A stretch of DNA of 61,914 nt, filler included, from Basidiobolus ranarum (Eukaryota), in the NCBI GenBank assembly GCA_040143965.1. It is 22 parts of 22 records of this genome, joined end to end, with 100 filler letters (N's around TTAATTAATTAA, not from the genome) between each part and the next. Parts side by side here need not be neighbours in the genome. Positions count along the whole stretch, not along the records: positions 39,515 to 42,230 come from JASJQH010003041.1; 21 more parts are not named here. One strand, written 5' to 3'. Position numbers and translations under genes: made by a program. Under the pieces are notes generated by a model, which saw nothing but the letters and a program-made list of their open reading frames with translations, was not told the origin of the DNA and did no database searches. The first letter of the stretch is position 1, and every line of letters begins with the position of its first letter. Below, one piece after another: positions 1,107 to 43,040 of this stretch.

Positions 1107-1798
1107 TTACCCCTTTAAGACCATGAAGGGAGTCAAGTTGGTGTACAGGGATTTAAGTTGTTTAGTGATTTGGTTGTCAAGAGAGGTGATTAACTCGTTG
1201 ATATGGGTTAGGCCATCGAAAGTAATTTTGATAGTGGATGTGTCAGAATTAAAGATAATATTGTCATCAGAGATATATTTTTTGGAGAGGACAGATTTAA
1301 GTTTGGTAGAGAAGGTATCTTCGGTGAAGAGATAACATCTTGAGTGGGGTGAGGAGTCTATTTTGATGGGAATGTGTTTTTTGTCAAATGAATTGGAGTG
1401 TTTCTTTACTGAATTTAAGATCACACCAAAGGCGAGGTCGATTTTTTACATTTTGTCGAGGCCCAGAGCTCGTAAGTTGGAGGTGGTATCAAGTACGTGG
1501 AAAACACCTGTGCGTAAGACGGAGACGTTTAAGTTGCCAAAGGTGGAGATGTTATCGATGATAATGTTATAGTTTATGTCGTTGACAAGTTTTTAGAGGA
1601 AAGGGATTTCGGTAGAGGAGAGGAGTAGATGTTTGAACGGTAAATTGTTGAGTAAGAGGGGGTTGGGAATGTGAGGAGAAAGTATGAGATCAGACACAAC
1701 GTCGAGAGGGGAGAGATGTGTTGGAGGTTTGGGGAAAAGGAGTTACAGAGGTCGAGGATAGCATTATAAGAGGAGTAAAGACGGGCAGGTTCGTGTAA
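1107..1798 (-). pseudogene. mutS: Internal fragment of a MutS7-type (giant-virus-like) mismatch-repair gene, lever/clamp region, pseudogenised
   Basis: Hand translation gives LHEPARLYSSYNAILDLCN (1798-1742), a frameshift, then HLLLSSTEIPFL*KLVNDINYNIIIDN. These match the MutS at 39515-41140 at 15/19 and 15/27 residues. The frame continues (NLNVSVLRTGVFHVLD...IKIDSSPHSRCYLFT...TIKITFDGLTHINELI) into ORF 1107-1424. In-frame TAA at 1593-1595 and 1446-1448. Same C-rich/G-poor coding strand as contig 39515-42230. The downstream end of homology is approximate. Confidence 0.85.
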
Positions 1799-2587
1799 TT
1801 TAGCCCACCTACCAACTAGCAGCTTTTCAACTGATCCATAATTAATCTAATCAAGACAAACATACTTTCATTTCAACATAAACTATGTTCTTGTGTTTAA
1901 GAGCATAACCACATACTTTTTAAGGCATAAAAAGCATTGAAGTATGAACGGGGGTTCGAAGTACCAACTAAAGAAGTCTATATGAATAAACGATAATTTT
2001 ACTTCTTTGAAAGCAATCTTCAACCAATTGAATTACTTGAGTGCTAGATACAAATTTTTTGATTATATACGTATGATAACGATTGATGTACTAAATTTTC
2101 ACCACTTCAATTCCTTACATGCAAAAATAGAAATGGGAAGTGTTTGAAACCTTTACGCAGACTGCCATATACCGGTCGTGAATGGGAATCAAAAGTCATT
2201 ATAATAGTATTGCTGTAAGAAAAGAAGAAAATCATCGATCTAAAGCTTCTGAATGTATTTACTGCTTATCACTAAGATATCTCACATACGATTATTAGAG
2301 GTAATCAGAATCATCTTAGATATTAGGCGTGCGGGCTAAATGATCGAGTTAACTAACAAAGAGGTTACAAATGACTCCAATACCACAAGTAGTAACCTTA
2401 ATGTAAAAATATAGATCCGAACTGGGTAAGCTAAATATTTTTTATTAAATCCATGAGCATTAATTAACTATCAATAATCGTAATTTCTAGGCGTTGGATA
2501 TCTTTATGTACGCAGTAATTCTCGTATATATATATATATGTATAATTCAAGTGATCAGCATTACAAACATGATCCTTGACAAGGGGT

Positions 2588-2729
2588 TTAGTTGCACTCG
2601 GCAATGACTGACTTCATGGCAGTAATGGCCATATCCATCTTCTTCTCTTCAGCAGCATTGAGCTTAATATCCATGATTTGCTCAACTCCATTAGCTCCCA
2701 AGACAGCGGGCATGGAGGCATAGACACCA
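2588..2729 (-). CDS. L-lactate/malate dehydrogenase, C-terminal fragment (5' part beyond the contig end)
   Basis: Translates as GVYASMPAVLGANGVEQIMDIKLNAAEEKKMDMAITAMKSVIAECN*. The SxPxVLGxNGVE...L...E pattern is the LDH/MDH C-terminus. Stop TAA at 2590-2588. Codon usage resembles RPL16. Confidence 0.75.
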
Positions 2730-28244: not shown

Positions 28245-30820
28245 GTGGTCCCTTGGTCGAGTTCCATGGTTCCAATACCATCGAAGGCAAGACTTGGGCT
28301 ATTACTGAAATAGATAATCCATTTGAACAAGTTGGAAGTGATGATGAACGAGTCCTTAACGAGTTAGCTACTCAGCTAGCATATCCACCAAGACGTTTCC
28401 TTGTCTTGACCAATTCTGGTATCAATATGTTTGTTAAGCAGCGCCCTATCGACATCTTAAACCAGCTTTTGACTAGTCCTTCCACACAAGAAACCGATAT
28501 ATTGGCTTTCATTGAAAACTACGGCAGAGCACAAGTTTGTGCTATGTGCTTGGCTATTATTTGTGGACACCCCTCAGTAAACAGCTCTGGTTTCGATAGC
28601 CTGATGAGTTCCCAGATTGGTAAGAATCAGAGTAGCATTTCGAGTGCACAGAAAGTTTTCTTTGAATACGGTGGAAAGCCAATTTTAGTTGATTATCAAT
28701 CAAACATTGTTTCCAGCAATGATGTAGGCAGACCCTTGTTCACCCCCGAGCCTATATACAGTGGCCGTCACGATGGCTTGGCTCTATTCCTAGCTCGCCT
28801 CGTCAACCCCATCTGGAAAAAGCCTTTCATCGTCAAAGTTGGGAATGAGTATGATACTGCAGTCTCTGTTTCAGTATTGTCCTCGATTCAGCAGAACCTT
28901 GCTTCTCTTAGAGAATTCTTAGAAGCAAATCCTCATTTCACCTCCCGACCAGATTCATCACAGTTCATGTTTTCAGATCTACAGACTGGACGTAGAGAGG
29001 CTGAAGCATGGCAAATGGAGCAACAGTCTTTATACACCATGCAGGAGTTATTGACTCAGTGCTTTGAGGCTATTTCGTTTATCTCTCTTTTATTGGATTA
29101 CAGATTGTCCGATATCATTCACAACGTAACTACCTCCACTCAGGATCAACTATTGGAGCTCACTTTTGAGAATTTCTTGATTTCCGTCAAAGGACGCGAA
29201 CTCCGTAGAGATCTGGTCGCTGCTGTAATCGACAAGCAAGCCAACCAACATATTAGCGTAGAGGCAGTTAGTGATCTATTGCAAAAGCGTTGTGGGTCTT
29301 TCTGCACTGTTGACGACGTCACTCTTTTCAAGGCCATCGAGCATTTGAGACATGCCAAGGCCACCAATGAGCCAGAAGAGCGATCTGCTCTGTTGAGGGA
29401 GTCGCTCAGACTTTTCAATAGAGTGGCTAAGCATCTTCCACTTATCAAACTTCAAGAAATTTGTGAAGAATTCAAGCGTCTAAGATTCCATATGGGAGCA
29501 GTTGAACTTGGATTGACATGTGCTAAAGAGCAGGACCCAGCAGGTTACGCAATCTCCTTTTTCCAAGATAACGCCCCCTCATCTGATTTCCGAGTAGAAT
29601 TCTATAAGAAGCGCATCAGATGTTATGAATGTGTTTTCTCCACCTTACTTGCTGCCAATTCTCTCTATCAACAAACCAAGCTTTCAGCTGAGGATTCAGA
29701 AGTAGCTCTCGAAGATAATGAGATATTTAGAAACCAAGTTTTCCACAAAGCTCTCTCATCAGACGATGTTCTATTTCATTTCCAGCTTTACGACTGGTAT
29801 ATTGCCCAAGGACTTGTCCAACAATTATTGGAAGTGCAGACACCATACTTGGAGGACTATCTTCAAAGAGAGCCACTTACACTCGAGAAATTGGATTTAC
29901 TTTGGCAGTATTATGTCAGAGCTGGCCATTATGGGCTTGCGGCCAGAGTTCAGAGTAGATTGGCGGATTCGACCGAGTTTGAATTGACCCTTGCTGGACG
30001 TATTGAATATCTTTCACGTGCAGTGGGAAATGCCAAGAGTTTTGCACCTGGCATTAGCAGAGAGGATGGAATTCAATTCTTGCATGAACTTGAAGAGAAG
30101 TTGGAGGTAGCTCAGGTTCAAATGGACATTTACCATGGGATCAAACGCAGTGGTGCACACCTCGATGCTCTCGCGGAGTTGGATACTAAATTGTTCGATG
30201 TCACCCAGTTGTATAATCAATTCGCATTCCCTCTCAGACTTTACGAGTCGATGCTTCTTATCTTTTATACTTCGAATTACTACGATCAGGAATATATCGG
30301 ACAAATATGGTTAGAAATCATTCAGCAAACACATGACAATGCTCTAGCAGAGGGTCGCGTTCAGCCCAACCAAGCCATGAGCCAGAAGGTCAAAGATATT
30401 GGCAAGAAATATTATCCATCCTCCAACGTATTTCCACTTGCGAAGATTTGTGATCTTCTTGAGAAATACAATCTTCAACACAACGCTGAAGCGGAGCCTG
30501 GGTGGGTGGTTCGTACTCTCCATGACATCGGAGTTCCTTACGGATCTATGCTTGAGATTTTCCACTCAATGTTCGAAACCAAACTTCCACCTTGGCAATC
30601 ACCAAGCTCCATGGAATTTCTACTTGAAGAGATCTACATATTGATGAATGAATGGATCACCTTGGATAAGCAAAGGAACTTCTCGGAAGACAACGAGTCA
30701 CTTCCAGCTAAATTTATCGATGAATCGATTAGTAAATATTTGGTAACCTTAGCCACTACCAACTCCACATTGGTAAACAAATTCCATGAACTTCAAAGAC
30801 GTATTCGTCAACTCTATTAG
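28245..30820 (+). CDS. NUP170: Nucleoporin Nup170/Nup157 (Nup155 family), 5' truncated
   Basis: 855-aa open frame with NELATQ..PPRRFLVLTNSG....KQRPID, YSGRHDGLALFLARL..PIW, LQKRCGSFC, FHFQLYDWY, DLLWQYY, RIEYLSRA, LEEKLEVAQVQ. Frame is open to the contig start; stop TAG at 30818-30820. Confidence 0.95.
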
Positions 30821-31169: not shown

Positions 31170-32660
31170 AACTCCTATCATGAAAACCTTTGCAATTGGG
31201 ATCTCTTCATAATCCACCAACCACAATATTGCATTTGTGTAATGTTAAGAAGCTGCAGAATTAATATATCAGGTCTGAAAATCCTTGTTGGTAGTCATAA
31301 AAAGAGCAGATATGAACTAGTGATCTTCTAGTTTAACCACATTTCCAGATTTGGCACATTTTTCTTCTTTTGCAATTCTTTTGGTGCAATCTTGGCTTAA
31401 ATGGCTAGTTCTGTTCTGGTAATCACAGAATGGGTCACTTTTCTTCTCAAAGTGCTTTTGACCTTCATAAGATGATTTCCTGGTTCCTCATCACCTATTA
31501 GAGCATTTTCTGCACTCTTTTGGTTAGGTCCCATTTTGCATAAATCTTCATCCAGAAGTCTGCAAATACTTAATGAACTTGTTCTCTGAGCTAGTGCCAG
31601 ATTGTCCTGTTTATACCATATTGGATAAAGCATTGCAAAATTTATGCAGCACAATTTGACATTATCTAGTACCCTCTGGTATGATCAATTTCAATCACAT
31701 TTACTCAAATATATTGATCCAAGGTCCAATAAATCCAGGCACAAAGGAAGAAGCCCAACAAGGCCAAATTTTCAGTTCTTGATTCTAGAGCCATTACTAG
31801 GCTCTGAAACTTGTGTGGCATGCTACTCAGAACTGTAACAATGATATCTTGTTTAGTGGTAGGAGCTCCAATGCATTCCATTTCTTCCAATGAAATAGTG
31901 ACTCTATTAATCAGTCATTCAGTTTCTTCTGCTGGCTTCATCTTGAAGTTAAGGGATTGTGTTCCTAGAAACATTGTGTTGGCAGCAGAACTTGTTTCAT
32001 AGGTGTCTTCTAAGGCTTTCCATATCTTCTTGGCAGTTTTGGCTCTTGAACATTGAAATAGCAATTTGTCTTCAACATTAAGACAAATTGTGTTACAGTC
32101 ACTTTGTTCTTTTTTAACCTGGATTAAAACTTTGGTTTCAGATAGTTTTGCATTGTTTTCTTCTCCTACAACAGTGCCTCAAAGTACTGTTTCTTGCAGC
32201 ATCATTTTCATCCAACTTGATAATTGGTTCCATGCAATTTTCAAAAGAGGGAAAAGTTTCAGAAGTTTGGGAAGTAAACATTATAGAGAGTGCAAGCTTG
32301 GGGCTCCTAACATGGTAAAGTGCTTTGGAGTCTGTGAGGAATGGTTTGGAAAATTGGAGAAATTGGTGGTTTTCACTTATTGATTTATTGAGTAGAACAT
32401 TGACATTTGTGGTTTTGTCAAAATGTAAGCACAATAACATGTAAAATGTGTTATGGAAGGTCCCAGGAACATATGTGCAGAGTTTGGGGCTTCTAACACA
32501 AGTTTGAAAAATCTATATATCTGAGAGCTTCAAAGTTGGTAAAATATTTCTAGAAAATTCCAATTGAGAAGAGAAGATAATATCTTAATCAATTGTAAGA
32601 TAACTGAGTACTAAGCTATACATGACTATATAGGTGCTTAGGCAATGCTGATTTTGAAAA
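31170..32660 (-). mobile_element. Copia family B 5' end: LTR (32313-32660), PBS, gag and start of protease, decayed
   Basis: LTR-B is followed by a GTTAGGAGCCCCAAGCT PBS variant, then ENFSPFENCMEP / AKKIWKALEDTYET / IGAPTTKQDIIVTVLSSMP. Confidence 0.85.
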
Positions 32661-32699
32661 TAATAATTATATAATAATAATATATATATAATGATAAAA

Positions 32700-33781
32700 T
32701 AAATGGGGGACAAAAAAAAAGAAGAAAGATGGAAGAGGAGATACAAGCCCACACCAGATAGTACATTATTAGTTAATGCTTGATGGCTTTATGAACAGCA
32801 TGGTTGGAACATGGCCATGTTTGGCTTAACCAGTGGTGGCTATGCCAATACCTTCAAGATTGGATCAAATTATTGTAGTCAAGTGTTGTTTCATATATTT
32901 GAAAATCATCAAGATTATGTGCTTAAAATACAATTAGTCTGCATGATACTTTCATCTGAAGGAATATTTGGATGCAAATTGGGATATTCTTTTGATGACA
33001 GGATATCTTCAATAACATGCTTATTCCTTTGCTATCATGGTGCAATTTCCTGAAATTCAAAGAAATAACCTACCAAAGCATTTTAAGCAACAGAAAAAGA
33101 ATACACATCTACTTGCAAAGTAACAAAAGAAGTAATGTGAATAAAAAGACTCATAAGAGTTTTGATCACTTTTGAAATTTCATCAACTACAATAATTCAA
33201 GATAATCAAAATTTAATCAAGTCAGTCAGAAACTCCTGTTTCATACTAGTTGCAAACATATAGATGTTGAACATCATTTTATTAGGTAAACAATAGAGTC
33301 AAGCTTGTTCACACATCTTATATATCTGCCAAAAAGATGATTGCTGATATATAAAACCAAAATTAGCTAGGCAGGAATTGGTGGACTATAAATCTTCCTT
33401 AGGATAAAATTCAATAGCTCTTTAGTTGAGGGAGAATGTAACAATTAGCATTGCCTAAATGCCTATATATTCACATATAGTTTAGTAGTTAGTTACCCTT
33501 GGTTGAATTATGGTAAAACCCTTTATTCTCAATTGGAACTCAATAAGAATAGCTTACTAACCTTGAAGTGCACAGATATGTAGTGTTTTCAAACTTGAGT
33601 TAGAAGCACCACACTTTGGATATATGTACCTGGGACCTTCCTAAGCATATTATATATGCCAGTTTGTTTACAGCCCAATAAATATACAAATGCTAACTTT
33701 CTACCCTAAAAATTAAGAAGTGGCAACCATAAATTTCTCAAATTCTTCAGATCACATCCAGCAGGCACCTAAAATACTTTG
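32700..33781 (+). mobile_element. Old Copia RT/RNase H remnant, PPT and diverged 3' LTR-B (from about 33437)
   Basis: GYSFD, ISWNSK, IIQDNQ, KHIDV.HHFIR, MIADI, then GTTGAGGGAGAA and TGTAACAATTAGCATTGCC. Confidence 0.75.
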
Positions 33782-36151
33782 NNNNNNNNNNNNNNNNNNN
33801 NNNNNNNNNNNNNNNNNNNNNNNNNTTAATTAATTAANNNNNNNNNNNNNNNNNNNNNNNNNNNNNNNNNNNNNNNNNNNNCAGATGCAAATGTAATATA
33901 TAAGTATAATCGGCCAACATGCATTCCAGCAAGGGGTAAAACCTGGTAATCGCAAATGGGCTTCGTCACAGGTCACTCTTCATGGTCATGCCAATCTTGA
34001 CGAAGTGACTTTGGCGCGGTACTGCGTGATTTCAATCTCACCATTGAATGGTTTACTGCCGCAGACAATGTCGTACAATAGGAGTCTCTTATGAAACGCT
34101 TTGATATGGCACCATCTATTCCTCTCAGGGGGCCTTTTGCTGTACATACAGATCTAGTTCCATGGCTGCTTTACTGTTTCTAAGGCCAAGTCTATTAGAT
34201 ATCAGCCAGCACCCCTGAAATTAGTTGCGTTGTGCCTGTAAAGGACTCTGTGTTTTACTATATCCTGAATATTTGTCAGACGATAGTCTTCAAGTTTCTT
34301 GCTTACCTATCTCTCACTCGAGATTGTTGATATGCCAGTTCAGCTGTTCAGTCTAGAGGAACGATCGAAGTCTCTGTCCTCAGGCTAAACGCCTAGAATT
34401 TTGCCATGAAGCTGATGCAGTGCAATTTATTGGTGTTATTAAGAATACCAGTTTAGCCCGGCTCTGGTAGAACCAAATATTGGTAGCGAACATTCGATCG
34501 ATATCAGATATGTATATAATGTAAATTTCGATCAGACCTGAACAAGTTGGTGATGAGAATTGCCTTAGTGATATCCAGGTTTATTACGTATCTGAAAAGC
34601 AAAGCATGAGCTTCCCCATTAAGATCTAGTGGTTTGTGATCAAAGCTAAGGGTGGTTACCATTGGTTGCTGTATTTTTGTTTCAGTCATAGAATCGAGTA
34701 ATTAGTAGGATCGTAGGCTGATCGCCTGCGGGACACCTTATGGAGCACCTGAGAAATATAAGGAAGCCTCTCCATCAATTCGAGTCTGGGCTTCGTGTAT
34801 TATCAATTATACACACCTCACTTTTGGGATACAAAGAAACAAGTTCGACAGCCATGTCTTTGCTCGCAATATCTGTTTACAAATCAAAATCAGTGGTAAC
34901 TAAGCGTACCGATTTCTTTTAATGATGCCGCAGGAACCTATTGAATCATCTAGTAATGGCTAAAAATTGAGGTTCGCCCAAATAATTACCGGTACTATAT
35001 GCGCAGTTCTCCCACTCCTTCCCATTCTCTACACCACCATGTCATCTCCTTGATACCTTCTGGTTTTAACCCCTTTTATCAGCATCATAATGATTGCCTG
35101 GCGCTTATCGGTCTTGGTTTTAGCACAACCTCAGCCATCCATTGAAGTATACCCAAAAGTCTCATTTGTGTAACAAGGATTGTCACTGTTTGTGGCCATT
35201 ACTCATTATTGGTGAGTATTTTTTTACGGTGACTGATGTGAAGGGCTTAGCTTTTTTGTTCTTGTGAAGTACGTATTCAGAGTTACCCACTTTATGTACA
35301 GCGGAGCTGCTATTTCAACATATTATAAGGCCATTCAGCGAGTTCTTTACAATACTTCATAGTTATACATGCCAGGTATCGTAGGTGTTAAGAGTATCTT
35401 TACAGTTTATTAAGCAATTCTCACGAAGTTGCTTTTAGCGACTATTTTAGAATACTCACTGCACTATTTCTATTTTGTGCGATCATCTTGTTACCGATGT
35501 ATTACTCCTGTAGTACCATTTGGGTACAAAGTGGCATCCCAAGCTATTTGAGTAATCATATAACCGTTTTAGATTACATATTGATTTGTGAACAGTCAAA
35601 GTGTTTTTAAGTAACTAGTAATGTCACTTAACTTCGCTGAAAAAGGGGTTCAGTAGCTTCTTGTCTAAGGGCCAGATTGTTCGGAAATTCTGGTAAACAG
35701 AATACATTCAAACTATAGCGACATACTTGGTGTAAGAGAGAGGCAAAAGTTGGTGTTGTTCATTGAACTTGAGTATATTCAACCGAATCTATGATCGTTT
35801 TGTATTTAAACAATATTTCTTACTTTCAGAGCGGTTGCACTTACCACTGCTCTAAATAAAACATTATCTGGGCTCTTTTTGGATATACTGTTAAAACAGA
35901 TTGATCACCTTCATTGATTCAAGTTCAGTCTCTGATTAGATTTAGAGGAAGGCGTTTGTAGGTGTAGAAATGAGCAAACCTGATGGATTGTGTAGGCAAT
36001 CTCAATAGGAGGCCAGTATGTATAATCCATTTTTGACTACAATGGTGAAGGTAGAAAAAACACAGAAGCATTTAATCTTTGGGGGAAACTGATGATGCAA
36101 TATATGCCAGCCCATGTTGAGTGATAAGAATAGTAGTGTGTATGTTAAAGC

Positions 36152-36598
36152 TGTTGAAGTATTTGAGAGCCTGTTGGAAGTGGTTTGGAGAATTAGAGAA
36201 AATGGTGGTTTTCACTTGTTGATTCATTGAGTAGAAAGTTGACATTTATAGTTTTGTCAAGATGTAAACAAACTAACGTGTAGAATTTGTTAAGGAAGGT
36301 CTCAGGAACATATGTGCAAAGTTTGGGCTTCTAGCACAAGTTTGAAAAATCTATATATCTGAGAAATTGAAAGTTGGTAAAAATATTCTAAGTAAATTCC
36401 AGTGGAGAATAATGGATAATATCTTAGTGAAATGTAACATAATTAAGTACTAAGCTATATATGACTATATAGGTGTTTCAACAATACTAATTGTTGGATA
36501 ATTAATCTTTATTCAACATCATAGTTAACTTTAGTTATGATACATATATCAGAAACAGAAAGCAACGTATCTATAGCCCCTATATTCTAAATAGGAAT
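36152..36598. mobile_element. LTR-B (36152-36491, -) cut by LTR-C (36492-36598, +)
   Basis: Direct homology to 52682-53029 and 18587-18693. Confidence 0.8.
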
Positions 36599-38359: not shown

Positions 38360-39414
38360 TAGTAGTTAGTTTGTCGCAGATCACGGAAAACAAATATTTG
38401 CCAAAAGCAAAAATTGAGATAAGTAAATCAAGTAACCACTAATGAGGATCATCTAGTTATGTTAGCCCTATTAGTAGCCACTAAGAAAGACTCAGAAACA
38501 TGGTACATTGCTTAAGATGCTTCCTAGCATATGTCAAACAAGAAAGATTAGTTTTCCAGCTTAAAGCCCATCCAAACAAGGTCAGTCCACTTAGGCGCTG
38601 ACTATGCACTGGATGCAATTAGTAAGGGCACAGATATGTTCCACTTAGACCAATATTTAGCATAAAATATAGCCATAAATCAACTCTCAGCAAGCCAAGC
38701 AAAAGCTCAGGGACTAGTTTTTGTGTTCAGCAATGCTGAATACTTTATCACATAGCATAATAATAACAAATTAGCTACAAGGATGACAATTCAAAACTGT
38801 GACAAGCTGCAAATCAACAAATTTCATTGGAGGTATGCAAACCTGGCTAAAACCTGTAAAACACGCTGTTGAATGTGGTTTGGAAGATTAGGCCACATTG
38901 GGGGAAAAAACTGACCCAAATGGTCCAAAATCAGCTTGTTTCAGGCTTAGACATTGATTTATCACCAATTTGGATCTGTGTGAAGGTTACATATATGGCA
39001 GAAATCCCACAAAATTGTTTTCAAGCTCCAGAGAGATCAAATCCACCAAGAAATTTGCCCTGATTCACACTGACCTATGTGGGCTCATGAAAAAAGCCTC
39101 ACTAGGTGTTAAAAGATACATAGAGACCTTTGTTGATGACAAAACAAGATCTTTATGTATGATTTTCTCAAATTGGATCCTGAAGCCATAACTAGATTTA
39201 AGAACTATAAAACAATGGTAGAGAAAGAATCAGCACAAAAAATAAGGGTACTAAGGAGTGAAAATGGTGGAGAATACTGTTCAAATGATTTTGCTAGTTT
39301 TTGTTCTAAACTTGGAATTAAGTGATAGACTGCTGTGCCTTGCTATCCACAGCAAGACAGAGTTGCAGAATGTGTTAATTTGACCATAGTGGAGATGGCA
39401 AGATTGTTTTTTAT
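38360..39414 (+). mobile_element. Copia protease/integrase remnant
   Basis: SETWYI...AS.HM, RLGH, CEGYIYG, LIHTDLCG, TFVDDKTR, LRSENGGEYCS, PQQD.VAE. Confidence 0.88.
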
Positions 39415-39514
39415 NNNNNNNNNNNNNNNNNNNNNNNNNNNNNNNNNNNNNNNNNNNNTTAATTAATTAANNNNNNNNNNNNNNNNNNNNNNNNNNNNNN
39501 NNNNNNNNNNNNNN

Positions 39515-41140
39515 ATTATCGATAATAAAGGTATGATTTATGTCGGCAACGAATTTTTTGAGAAGGGATATTTTGTGGGGGGATAATAGGATATGTTGTA
39601 GAGAAGATTTTTTGCGAGGAGGGGGGTTGGAAGTTTCGTCAGACGAAAAAGATTTAGGATTGGGAGTTTCATCAAACGAAAAAATTTTGGGATTGGAAGT
39701 TTCATCAAACGAAAAAGTTTTAGAATCGGAAGGTTCATCAAGTGACAAAGATTGTAAATTAAGAATGGCATCAGATGAAAAAGATTTAGAATTGGAAGTT
39801 TCATCAAGTGAAGAAAAGGTTGGGATAAGAAGATTGCATAGATCTAATATAGCTACGTAAGAAGTATACAGACGAACGAGTTCGTGCAAAGTTAAAACTT
39901 CTAAAAGGAGTCTGCGGTGGAGTCGTTCTAAGTCGGCGATATTGGCTAAAAGGCGTTCGAAGGTTTTAACAGAGGAGTCGAAAAGGGAACCGAATTCATC
40001 TAATTGGCGAAAGCGGTGTTCTAATTTATGAGGATTGGTGATGGGGGAGAGCAATCGTTTCTTAAGGAGTCGTTTACCCATTTTGGTGGAACAAAGATCT
40101 ATAATGTCGAGTAAACATTGGGTTGGATTGGATTTAAAAGTTTTGTTGGCAGATCTGGGTTTGGAGAAATGGACGAGATCTAGTTGGTCTATGGTATTGG
40201 TAGCTAAGATGAGGTGATCAGAGGGGAGGAAGATTTCTGGGCGAGATATTTTGCGGACAAGCATGGGATTGTGGAGATAAAGGAATTCTATAAGAAGGAC
40301 GTAACTGGTGAGGGAATAAGGTTGGCGTTCAAGATCTAAGAGTTCTATATTGGAGAGCATGGTTTTGTTGGGGAAGATGTTGCCTAAGATTTCGTTCTGG
40401 TAGTTGAGTTGGAGAGCTTTAGGGGTAGCGTCTATGTAATGGGAGAGGATATCATTGGAATATAATTCTAAGTAGGAGATAAGATCCATAGATTTGAGAA
40501 GATCCAAGGATTTGGGGGCAGAACAGAAGACGACTTCACGTGGGTGATATTGCTTGAGGAAGGAGAGGATATGATCGAGAGATAGGCGATTATCTTCAGG
40601 GGTAGAGTAAGATTCGAAGACAACATTTTTGCCGGTGACGACATCGATGGCACTAATACCGATGTGGAGATAGGAGTTGTCGGTATCAGAGAGGGATTTT
40701 TTATTGGTGTCAAAGAATAGGAGGGCGAGATAATTTCGGGAGACGAGGGGTTCTTCAAGGTCGACATAGGTGGAGGGGCTGATAATATTGGAGACTTCAC
40801 GGGTAATATTGGGAGGGGTACCTTTTTGGTCGATGATGACGAGGGTATAGTTGTGTTCGAGTAGGAAGGGGATGTATTTTTTAAGGGCGACACAGGGGAA
40901 ACCGACGAGCAAGGGGTTAGTACGATTATTCGAGGAAATTTTTTTATTTTTTTTGGTGAGGACAATGTTTAGGATGTCGGAGATATCGGCTGGGTTGCCA
41001 ATTTTTTCGGTATTATTGTCGACGCCGTAAATTTCGTAGAAGCTGCCGACTTGGATAAGAACAACGAGTTGTTTGCCATATTGTTGTTCATAGATTTTAA
41101 TAAAATTAAAATAGTCGTTGACAACGGATTCTTTACTCAT
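39515..41140 (-). CDS. mutS: MutS7-type DNA mismatch repair protein (giant-virus/NCLDV-like), domains I-III, 3' truncated by the contig end
   Basis: ATG at 41140 (the ORF track starts at an upstream TTG). Intronless open frame. Domain I: LIQVGSFYEIYG (Phe-X-Glu kept), LNIVLTKKNK, PLLVGFP, REVSNIISPST. Connector: IGISAIDVVTG..PREVV. Core: CSTKMGKRLLKKRLLSP, IADLERLHRRL. The LNIxLTKKNK...GFP pattern is what I recognise from MutS7 rather than eukaryotic MSH1-6. ATPase and HNH domains are not in the contig. Confidence 0.9.
39617..39814 (-). repeat. Coding minisatellite, six 33-bp (11-aa) units inside MutS
   Basis: SSLDETSNSKS / FSSDAILNLQS / LSLDEPSDSKT / FSFDETSNPKI / FSFDETPNPKS / FSSDETSNPPP. 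Confidence 0.9.
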
Positions 41141-41365
41141 GTTCAATATATAAGGGCGAGGATTGGTAGAGAACCAATTTAATCTGGATGGGAGGGGGAG
41201 AGGTTTAAGAATGCAGGGGATATGTTGTGGGTAAATGGGGGTGGAATGATTAAGTTTTAAAAAGTTTGGGTGTAGGGTTGTTGCGGATGGGGTGTGTAGG
41301 GAGGGGTGATACGATGGGGAGGTAAGAGGAGCGAATTTGTATTGGTTTGGGGAAATGATAAAGTA

Positions 41366-42076
41366 TTACGGGGGAGTATTTGGGCGAGTTTCACATTCAA
41401 GTACGAATTTGGCACTATAAGAGAAGACTTCTAGGCAGGTACAGACTTTATGTTTGACGCCAATAGATCGGAGGGTGGGTGCATTTTCGCGTGAGACATA
41501 AGCGACGTGGTTGTTATCGACTAGGACTTGGATTGCGTTAGGGTCATGAGGGTTATTATTTTCTTCTAGGAGTGTAATTTTATCGCCGACAGAAAAGGAG
41601 TGGTTGCCACGGTATTTCATGCCGACAACGATAAATGTATATTTGTCGGAGTTAAGTTTGGAATTTCTGAGGTTAATTATTTGACCACTATTATCGACGA
41701 TATTTTGCGAGATAAGTGTTTGGAAAGATTTCCAATAAGATTTGGGATCAAACGTTGTCATGTTGTCGAGACAGGTGTTATAGTCAGTGAACCATTTGCT
41801 AGTATAGGAGGTGGGATTGTCGGAGTTGTTGTTTAGGACTTGAATTATAAATTTGTATATAGTGCCATCTACGTATTTGGGATCAAAGTCTAGGTTGTTA
41901 TTTATAAGGAAATTAATGTCGTTGGGGCTTAGTATTTTACTTTCGGAGTGGTTAACAAGACCAACGACAAGATTGGAATCGTTGTTTTTGAGGACGTGCC
42001 AACCGTTTAGGACTAAGTTTGTACAATAGGAATAGTCTTTAGAGTTGGGATGAGGTTTCCATTTTTTGGCAAGCAT
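41366..42076 (-). CDS. HIRAN-domain protein (C-terminal HIRAN, unknown N-terminus), virus-like, 236 aa
   Basis: FIVVGMKYRG....GDKITLLEENNNPHDPNAIQVLV....VAYVSRE is the HIRAN pattern (NxxDxNAIxV, G/AYV). Intronless, complete ATG to TAA, co-oriented with MutS and 225 bp from it. Confidence 0.85.
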   Translation of the reverse strand: MLAKKWKPHPNSKDYSYCTNLVLNGWHVLKNNDSNLVVGLVNHSESKILSPNDINFLINNNLDFDPKYVDGTIYKFIIQVLNNNSDNPTSYTSKWFTDYNTCLDNMTTFDPKSYWKSFQTLISQNIVDNSGQIINLRNSKLNSDKYTFIVVGMKYRGNHSFSVGDKITLLEENNNPHDPNAIQVLVDNNHVAYVSRENAPTLRSIGVKHKVCTCLEVFSYSAKFVLECETRPNTPP

Positions 42077-42330
42077 AATAAAATAATATTATTTCGAATA
42101 AATAGGGGGGTGAAATTAGGATGAATCAAAACTTTATTGGTTGCGAAGGTTTAGGGGGGGGTGATGTACAAAAGGATGGTATTGTGAGGGAAATATTTAA
42201 AAATGGTTGTAGATAAGATTTAAAGTAAGANNNNNNNNNNNNNNNNNNNNNNNNNNNNNNNNNNNNNNNNNNNNTTAATTAATTAANNNNNNNNNNNNNN
42301 NNNNNNNNNNNNNNNNNNNNNNNNNNNNNN

Positions 42331-43040
42331 TTATTGAATTGAATATGTCCTATTTATAGCTTACTATGAAATAGGACTATTAGCTATGCTTAGATCATAA
42401 CAAATGCACCTGTTAAGCTTGGGTGACAATTTGCAAAGATGTGTAGAGGTTCTGAGAAAATAGTGAAAATTGGTTAAAGTGATCTAATTTTATTTCTATC
42501 AATTAGGGTAATAAACACTTGTTTTTGAATGGCAGAATTGAGAGCTAAATAATTGGAATATGAATAAGCTAACTGCAAAGTAAACAATTGCTATTTACCT
42601 AGTTTCACCATTCCTACCTAGCTAATTATATTGTATACCTCTTAAACCTAACTAATATCTTAATACTTCAAGTTGAGCTTTAGCTACAGGTTGGGGTAGA
42701 TGTCAGCAATCATTTCTTCAGTAGGGCAATAGACAAGTTCAATTTTATCACTCATTATTGCTTCTCTAACAAAATGATGTCTAATATGTATATGTTTTGG
42801 TCTAGCATGGAATATCGGGTTTTTAGCTTATGAAATACAACTTTGATGATTTTCACATACCATAATAGCATGTTTTGCACATGTCCTAAGTTTGTAAATT
42901 ACTTCCTTAGCCACATTGCTTTTTGCGTAATAGTAGAGGCAGCCATATACTCTGCTTCTGCATTGGAAAGTGCTATGGTTGGTTGCTTCTTAATATTCCA
43001 AGTTATGGCTCCATTAGCATGGAGAGAAGTGTACCTAGTT
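42331..43040 (-). mobile_element. Copia family A RNase H plus partial 3' LTR
   Basis: Reverse homolog of 22650-23360. Confidence 0.85.

Follow-up and report, generated by a model that had tools for sequence, protein, structure and literature searches.

We examined a 61,914-base window of DNA filed under the fungus Basidiobolus ranarum (assembly GCA_040143965.1) and found, on one of its contigs (positions 39515–42230, hereafter the target contig), the 5' portion of a giant-virus kind of mismatch-repair gene (MutS7 type) together with a complete gene for a protein with a HIRAN domain. This contig is probably Nucleocytoviricota DNA resident in a Basidiobolus-like nuclear genome, where it would belong to a larger endogenous viral region. 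The window, by which we mean the whole stretch analysed, consists of 22 contigs of ~2.7 kb apiece joined by spacers of the form N44-TTAATTAATTAA-N44 (for example, 39415–39514 and 42231–42330). Because the window is a set of separate contigs joined end to end, adjacency between contigs carries no biological meaning, and a contig that is 'unlike the rest' is one that differs from 21 other small contigs.

An earlier sequence-only reading had singled out the target contig in that sense, as two closely spaced, intact and co-oriented ORFs (open reading frames) free of transposon debris, and the ORF, Pfam and skew data agree. Both ORFs lie on the minus strand, 225 bp apart, and neither is interrupted by a stop or a frame break. 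A Pfam scan of the ORFs found no transposon domain on the contig, and a tRNA scan found no tRNA. Further frames over the contig (for example, 40468–40965) were rejected as low-complexity by-products of its skewed composition. The features discussed below are collected in Table 1.

Table 1 Features of the target contig and of the contig carrying the decayed MutS7 copy (positions along the window).
Feature	Position	Strand	Description
Target contig	39515..42230	.	Single whole assembly contig, 2716 bp; uniform extreme strand bias, with a G-rich plus strand and a C-rich, G-poor minus (coding) strand
MutS7-type gene, 5' part	39515..41140	-	542 codons, start codon ATG at 41140; domain I (F36/E38 motif) and domain III
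Tandem repeat within the MutS gene	39623..39826	-	33-bp in-frame unit, ~5.5 copies, 76% matches; SFDETSNPK-like low-complexity linker after domain III
HIRAN–MutS spacer	41141..41365	-	225 bp from the HIRAN stop to the MutS ATG; C-rich, CACCCC-like runs, short AT-rich tract directly before the ATG
HIRAN gene	41366..42076	-	Complete 236-aa gene (ATG and stop); N-terminal beta-rich module and C-terminal HIRAN domain (residues ~145–227)
Region upstream of the HIRAN gene	42077..42230	-	154 bp to the contig end; likewise C-rich, two C7–8 runs
Decayed, diverged second MutS7 fragment	1107..1846	-	Three collinear pieces, ~residues 402–640 of the full protein
3' end of a lactate/malate dehydrogenase gene	2588..2729	-	Last 46 codons and stop; Ldh_1_C 1.9e-7; unskewed

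A truncated MutS gene with giant-virus relatives

MutS7 proteins are self-contained mismatch-repair enzymes of large DNA viruses: mismatch recognition falls to domain I, an ATPase clamp comes next, and nicking of the DNA is done by an HNH nuclease at the C-terminus. The MutS ORF of the target contig spans 544 codons from a TTG at 41146 (the first ATG is at 41140) and is open to the last base at 39515, so that the contig end truncates the gene and its ATPase and HNH parts lie outside the contig. Pfam models for MutS_I (4.3e-11) and MutS_III (1.1e-16) both exceeded their curated cut-offs. No match to domain II or IV rose above the Pfam cut-off; the domain IV region falls at or beyond the contig end, and MutS_II reached 15.7 bits against a 25-bit cut-off, with an alpha/beta block in the structure model (residues 139–240) occupying the place of domain II. 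That model had a mean predicted local distance difference test (pLDDT) score of 68.9, with most of the first 300 residues above 80. Within domain I, residues F36 and E38, which we take to be the counterparts of the mismatch-binding residues of Escherichia coli MutS, are invariant in an alignment of 17 MutS7 sequences, as are 28 other columns. The linker formed by the 33-bp repeat sits at a position where length varies among the MutS relatives as well, as seen in the alignment.

Protein searches placed the gene close to giant-virus homologues. Among 8000 candidates scored (longer proteins), 105 were MutS relatives, every one of which contained domain V (PF00488); the best three were 45–46% identical to the target, 954–989 amino acids long and composed of MutS_I, MutS_III and MutS_V. 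Taken together, the nearest full-length relatives have 917–989 amino acids, identities of 45–47% and domains I, III and V, and their alignments show an HNH motif (CxxC...HH...N...CxxCH columns) at the C-terminus. A pattern scan of IMG/VR, built from a four-sequence alignment, returned 275 matches, 215 of which encode MutS relatives, and 44 of the 80 that were kept have 'GVMAG' in their names, presumably a label for giant-virus metagenome bins. An IMG/VR scan built from the single MutS protein yielded six pattern matches and no relatives. The closest locus at the DNA level (L001, 47% identical, on a 51.7-kb contig) encodes a MutS with a Pfam-recognised HNH domain (2.1e-6) and, in addition, a fragment of the RNA polymerase subunit Rpb1 and a superfamily 2 (SF2) helicase.

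Structure and embedding comparisons agree with these results. The nearest ESM-Atlas clusters were assigned to Nucleocytoviricota with a score of 0.98, and the six best fold matches in BFVD were all giant-virus MutS proteins: Moumouvirus (29% identity), Pithovirus LCPAC404 (25%) and Harvfovirus (32%) at ranks 1–3, followed by Pithovirus LCPAC101 (22%), Aureococcus virus (AaV, 20%) and Tetraselmis virus (TetV, 17%, annotated as 'MutS subfamily 7') at ranks 4–6. By comparison, MutS and MSH chains in the PDB matched at 1.4e-8 or weaker, and the NCBIfam models for MutS1 fell far short of their thresholds, at 135.7 bits (cut-off 480) and 90.4 bits (cut-off 641.7). Searching the phage collection by tblastn with the MutS protein gave no match. 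Across 185,579 prokaryote genomes, five of 43 pattern matches were relatives, with identities of at most 30%; the pattern consisted of two short peptides and could miss the MutS7 of Campylobacterota. MutS7 is defined by domains I, III and V plus HNH in PMC3166940 and is described in PMC6163669 as universal in, and distinctive of, Mimiviridae. Judged by domains I and III and by similarity, the target gene appears to be of the giant-virus MutS7 kind, as the sequence-only reading had proposed, and not MutS1 or MSH.

The same reading had gone further and called the gene 'Imitervirales-type', an assignment that is not established. Pithovirus-like metagenome-assembled genomes carry a similar MutS (LCPAC404 and LCPAC101, ranks 2 and 4 in BFVD), and MutS7 alone therefore does not fix the viral order. 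The contig may belong to the lineage of the published pithovirus-like relics of Basidiobolus, or to an Imitervirales-like one.

Identities to the target are 45–47% for each of L001, P0003, P0004 and P0005, while L001 and P0004 share 49%, so that the pairs compared span 45–50%; all remaining MutS relatives are at most 40% identical to the target. On these distances, the target and the other four look like a deep sub-group of MutS7. Two members, P0004 and P0005, contain several in-frame inserts of ~20–30 residues at different sites, which share motifs (…ALRVP…, …ALGSS…), a pattern that would suit the spread of a small mobile insert inside the gene. A further MutS7-bearing locus (L002, identical with G001), at 37% identity to the target, lies on a 190,684-bp IMG/VR sequence classed there as 'provirus'; the search for the capsid family in that sequence gave a weak, sub-threshold match only (20.7 bits against 34.8).

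Strand bias and CpG content of the target contig

The composition of the target contig is extreme and uniform. Plus-strand GC skew ranged from +0.37 to +0.61 in nine of nine 300-bp bins, intergenic DNA included, which bears out the earlier description of a C-rich, G-poor coding strand; that strand is ~30% C and ~10% G, or about three times as much C as G. Elsewhere, only four of 121 300-bp bins on contigs 2–14 reached |0.366|, never two in succession, and the four 1-kb bins (out of 61) that exceeded |0.3| all fell on the two MutS-bearing contigs. We considered the skewed bins at 32230–32829 and 36130–36429 as further viral candidates and rejected them, since they are two copies of a host repeat. 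This repeat occurs on two contigs (32138–32512 and 36193–36330, both on the minus strand), encodes similar peptides (…SPKLCTYVPGTFHNTFYMLLCLHFDKTTNVNVLLNKS… and …KPKLCTYVPETFLNKFYTLVCLHLDKTINVNFLLNES…), has a GC skew of at most 0.49 and is a host repeat family, not a viral one.

Strand bias of this degree is not a general property of MutS7 genes: four other giant-virus MutS7 genes had coding-strand skews of −0.04 to +0.19, compared with −0.37 to −0.61 for the target, and their loci do not avoid G in this way. Hypermutation by a process resembling repeat-induced point mutation, or by a deaminase, was set aside as the cause: neither ORF is broken, and the coding strand has A and T in about equal amounts.

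CpG was approximated by hand counts. Between 40040 and 40639 (600 nt) we counted 16 CpG against ~19.5 expected, compared with none in 215 nt (39200–39414) and none in 170 nt (42331–42500) of the neighbouring contigs, one of which bears a copia-type integrase fragment. CpG on the target contig, described earlier as abundant, is accordingly near expectation on this approximate count. The difference suggests that a CpG-eroding process, such as methylation, acts on host repeats and has not marked the viral block.

The regions upstream of the two genes resemble each other, with runs such as CACCCCCC(C)TA, and each closes with a short AT-rich tract immediately ahead of the ATG. These may be a shared promoter element. 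The motif AAAATTGA, which we take to be the Mimivirus-type one, is not clearly present upstream of the MutS and HIRAN genes.

A decayed second MutS7 copy beside a host-like gene

A related fossil, reported previously at 1107–1798 on contig 1, proved to be real and to extend to ~1846. Its first piece (1846–1730) corresponds to target residues 402–442 (49% identity by tblastn, E = 2.5e-4; 16 of 23 residues by BLASTP, E = 1e-7), its second (1592–1551) to target residues 531–544 (nine of 14 residues identical) and its third (1377–1162) to residues 470–533 of P0004 (28% over 72 residues, E = 0.006). Pieces 1 and 2 are separated by a frame change between 1574 and 1592, and pieces 2 and 3 by an in-frame TAA at 1446–1448. 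The fossil is without the first ~400 codons and everything past ~codon 640, including the ATPase and HNH parts. Where the two could be aligned, its DNA is ~65–75% identical to the target, which makes it a separate, diverged copy.

The GC skew of the fossil (+0.31 to +0.72) is limited to ~1200–1800 and drops to background level on both sides. At a distance of ~740 bp upstream, the contig has the end of a dehydrogenase gene (Ldh_1_C) on the strand of the fossil, a host-like context. Collinearity with MutS7, a broken frame, a compositional bias that ends sharply within the contig and the nearby Ldh_1_C gene together favour integration. Barring a chimeric contig, the fossil is, on its sequence, the best evidence that DNA from this viral lineage has been integrated. 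The earlier claim that the fossil ties the target contig to its host holds in this respect, the two being homologous, of the same odd composition and, in the case of the fossil, beside a host-like gene end.

These data also bear on contamination, either by a bacterium with a MutS7-like gene or by a protist giant virus present in the culture or sample. The target contig does differ in composition from every other contig of the window, and some MutS relatives occur in metagenome-assembled genomes labelled as bacterial (Magasanikbacteria, 33%; uncultured bacterium, 30%; Pacebacteria, 28%). Those matches are, however, far weaker than the giant-virus ones (45–47%), a homologous fragment of the same composition is embedded near the end of a dehydrogenase gene on another contig, and the closest named relative of the HIRAN protein is from Basidiobolus. 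With the reservation that the two-peptide scan of prokaryotes could overlook Campylobacterota MutS7, we regard contamination as very improbable.

A HIRAN protein with a separate N-terminal module

The known role of HIRAN domains is to hold on to free 3' ends of DNA where replication forks have stalled, and in a virus the pair of MutS7 and HIRAN proteins would serve replication fidelity and fork repair. The HIRAN assignment of the second gene is supported by Pfam (PF08797, 1.7e-8, 34.6 bits against a cut-off of 24.7) and by a structure model made from a five-sequence alignment (mean pLDDT 80). In Foldseek, residues ~145–227 of the model matched HIRAN structures of HLTF at ranks 1–11 with a probability of 1.0 and a template modelling (TM) score, normalised by target, of ~0.5. 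The same residues matched small viral HIRAN proteins in BFVD, one of them from Mimiviridae sp. ChoanoV1, an example consistent with the earlier remark that stand-alone HIRAN proteins occur in large DNA viruses.

The preceding ~140 residues make up a module rich in beta structure, whose motif reads W-x2-HPNS-x-Y-x-Y...NGWH. No counterpart of this module turned up in Pfam, NCBIfam, PHROGs, the PDB or BFVD; two weak NCBIfam matches to the protein cover residues 155–233. A likeness to NUMOD4 was an impression only and was dropped. One protein (P0307, 772 amino acids, on a 5-kb contig) has three copies of the W…HP…Y.Y…NG.H module and no HIRAN domain, which indicates that the N-terminal module is a separable unit.

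A profile search of 1.84 billion representatives gave 213 matches to the HIRAN protein at E ≤ 0.001, with one cluster alone below 1e-30. The two-part form was present in five of the 213: P0002, which is the window's own protein, P0118, P0119 and the more distant P0196 and P0197. Only two of these are close relatives, namely P0119 (58% identical), an annotated protein on a 33-kb scaffold of Basidiobolus meristosporus, and P0118 (55%); P0118 and P0119 are 67% identical to each other. As no viral homologue of the whole HIRAN protein was found, its viral origin rests on its adjacency to MutS7 and on the odd composition that the two genes share.

The fungal host and the divergence of the HIRAN gene

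The remainder of the window is fungal, which agrees with the fungal assembly named by the sequence-only reading. An ORF for the C-terminal part of NUP170/155 (855 codons, 28253–30817) is 67% identical to its B. ranarum counterpart and 61% identical to that of B. meristosporus, and the relative that ranks next reaches 45%; the two named species are 76% identical to each other. By these identities the host is a relative of Basidiobolus whose branch lies outside both of them. Copia-type transposon genes (for reverse transcriptase, integrase and gag) occur on other contigs, as do genes for ribosomal protein uL13, for a dihydrouridine synthase (Dus) and for a hydrolase.

HIRAN identities (58, 55 and 67%) follow the same order as those of NUP170 (61, 67 and 76%), so that the branching order matches that of the hosts. 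This pattern suggests, as far as the sequences go, either co-divergence or vertical descent. Under vertical descent, both genes would be old viral acquisitions that Basidiobolus has inherited as working genes under purifying selection. HIRAN divergence of similar degree to that of NUP170 fits this account, and so do ORFs that are still intact at such divergence and the conservation of F36, E38 and the 28 other columns across 17 MutS7 sequences. Against it, the extreme bias persists in the spacers and in the pseudogene, where host mutation pressure should have erased it; there are no introns; and the best MutS relatives are only 45–47% identical, with P0004 as the single one from an NCBI assembly and no fungal MutS orthologue shown. 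Co-divergence of virus and host explains the HIRAN pattern equally well, and we consider domestication quite unlikely.

Integrated or free viral DNA

Persistent infection by a free or episomal giant virus, kept at low copy and not integrated, would account for several of the same observations, with the fossil as an older, unrelated insertion from the same lineage. Both ORFs are intact, the viral-type composition is uniform up to both contig ends, CpG is not depleted as it is in the neighbouring transposon contigs (by hand count), and the ~30% difference of the fossil in conserved patches indicates separate events. Persistent and latent giant viruses are, moreover, documented in zoosporic fungi (PMC13533422). 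Other observations are harder to place: a replicating virus usually gives long, deep contigs, and a 2.7-kb contig broken within a gene is unlike what a high-copy virus would be expected to yield. None of the other contigs among the window's 22 is of viral type, the B. meristosporus scaffold of 33 kb bears an annotated homologue of the HIRAN gene, and PMC13533422 reports capsid genes in none of the non-zoosporic fungi searched, Dimargaris excepted. An unintegrated virus is on balance unlikely.

Residence in the nuclear genome is the reading we prefer, and we propose that a virus lineage long associated with Basidiobolus would have inserted more than once. The intact copy would then be either a fairly recent insertion or one kept under selection, and repeated insertion from a co-diverging virus would reconcile the divergence of the HIRAN gene with the survival of viral composition.

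Several results weigh against this reading. No host–virus junction was found on the target contig, both ends of which are viral-like, and integration of this copy is therefore deduced from contig 1 and not from a junction of its own; contig 1 itself could be a chimeric assembly. Intact ORFs and near-expected CpG suit a young insertion and a free virus equally, and a strand bias that non-coding DNA and the fossil have both kept speaks against a long stay in the host. The HIRAN pattern, which speaks for an old association, and the surviving bias, which speaks for short exposure to the host, pull in opposite directions. Scans for the two-part HIRAN protein in IMG/VR (44 relatives among 112 pattern matches) and in Joint Genome Institute (JGI) metagenomes (255 relatives among 584 matches, 80 of them kept) did not find it, as the IMG/VR relatives and the 80 kept from JGI matched over the HIRAN part only. 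A tblastn search of 80 giant-virus MutS7 loci for a neighbouring HIRAN relative likewise found none (best E = 0.84). Finally, none of the core genes for capsid, family B DNA polymerase (PolB), A32, D5 and VLTF3 was present in the 22 ORFs scanned, of 31 with at least 110 amino acids, which accords with the earlier statement that no capsid or polymerase gene is visible in the window. Such an absence says little, as the window amounts to just 22 short contigs.

Taken as a whole, the sequence-only reading is supported on the giant-virus MutS7, the fungal assembly and the link to the fossil. Its viral order and its alternatives of a recent endogenous and a co-sequenced virus are not established. 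An 'undescribed fungus-infecting lineage' is possible and likewise not established, given that relics from the genus are already in print and that the HIRAN protein has a 58% identical counterpart in B. meristosporus. A more specific proposal, namely an active or latent MutS7-bearing giant-virus lineage that is specific to Basidiobolus (a non-zoosporic fungus of gut and soil), has co-diverged with it and been inserted repeatedly, and has extreme strand asymmetry in genes and spacers alike, strikes us as doubtful. If true, the asymmetry would hint at an unusual mode of replication or at strand-specific DNA-editing pressure.

Comparison with known systems

Viral relics in Basidiobolus have been published, and the target contig is an addition to a known kind. 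Pithovirus-like endogenous polymerase genes from NCLDVs (nucleocytoplasmic large DNA viruses), named 'fundsalphaviruses', are reported from 14 fungi that include B. meristosporus and Basidiobolus heterosporus (Gong et al. 2020, PMC7017919), a 1.5-Mb viral region is described in Rhizophagus (PMC10640383) and Mycodnaviridae are described as infecting zoosporic fungi (PMC13533422). The term 'MutS' does not occur in the main texts of these three papers, whose supplements may list such genes, and 'HIRAN' does not occur in the main texts of PMC10640383 and PMC13533422, the two that were searched for it (PMC7017919 was not). Our literature search on Basidiobolus and giant viruses gave PMC7017919 as the sole relevant match, and that on MutS7 and fungi yielded no paper on viral elements of fungi.

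Only recently have fungal giant viruses been shown, in zoosporic fungi, and the evidence from non-zoosporic fungi consists of polymerase relics and one capsid match. An intact MutS7/HIRAN pair with a decayed copy extends the gene content known for fungal viral relics, and HIRAN divergence that parallels the host hints at a long association between virus and fungus. The G-poor coding strand, in turn, offers a simple compositional handle for finding the rest of the element in the assembly.

Compared with the MutS7 of giant viruses (Mimiviridae/Imitervirales), which also has counterparts in octocoral mtMutS and in Campylobacterota, the target has the same order of domains I and III. It differs in stopping, at the contig end, after the first 542 codons, short of the ATPase and HNH parts, and in its lineage-specific 33-bp repeat linker. 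The HIRAN domain shares its fold with that of HLTF, and the gene is without the helicase and RING parts of HLTF and Rad5; unlike the HIRAN domains of both these proteins and viruses, it is fused to an N-terminal module of ~140 residues. With the endogenous NCLDV elements of early-diverging fungi, the target has in common that viral DNA occurs in the assembly of a fungus outside Dikarya, that broken copies accompany intact ones and that polymerase relics are reported from the host genus. PolB or capsid genes are the basis of those reports, whereas the contig described here carries MutS7 and HIRAN.

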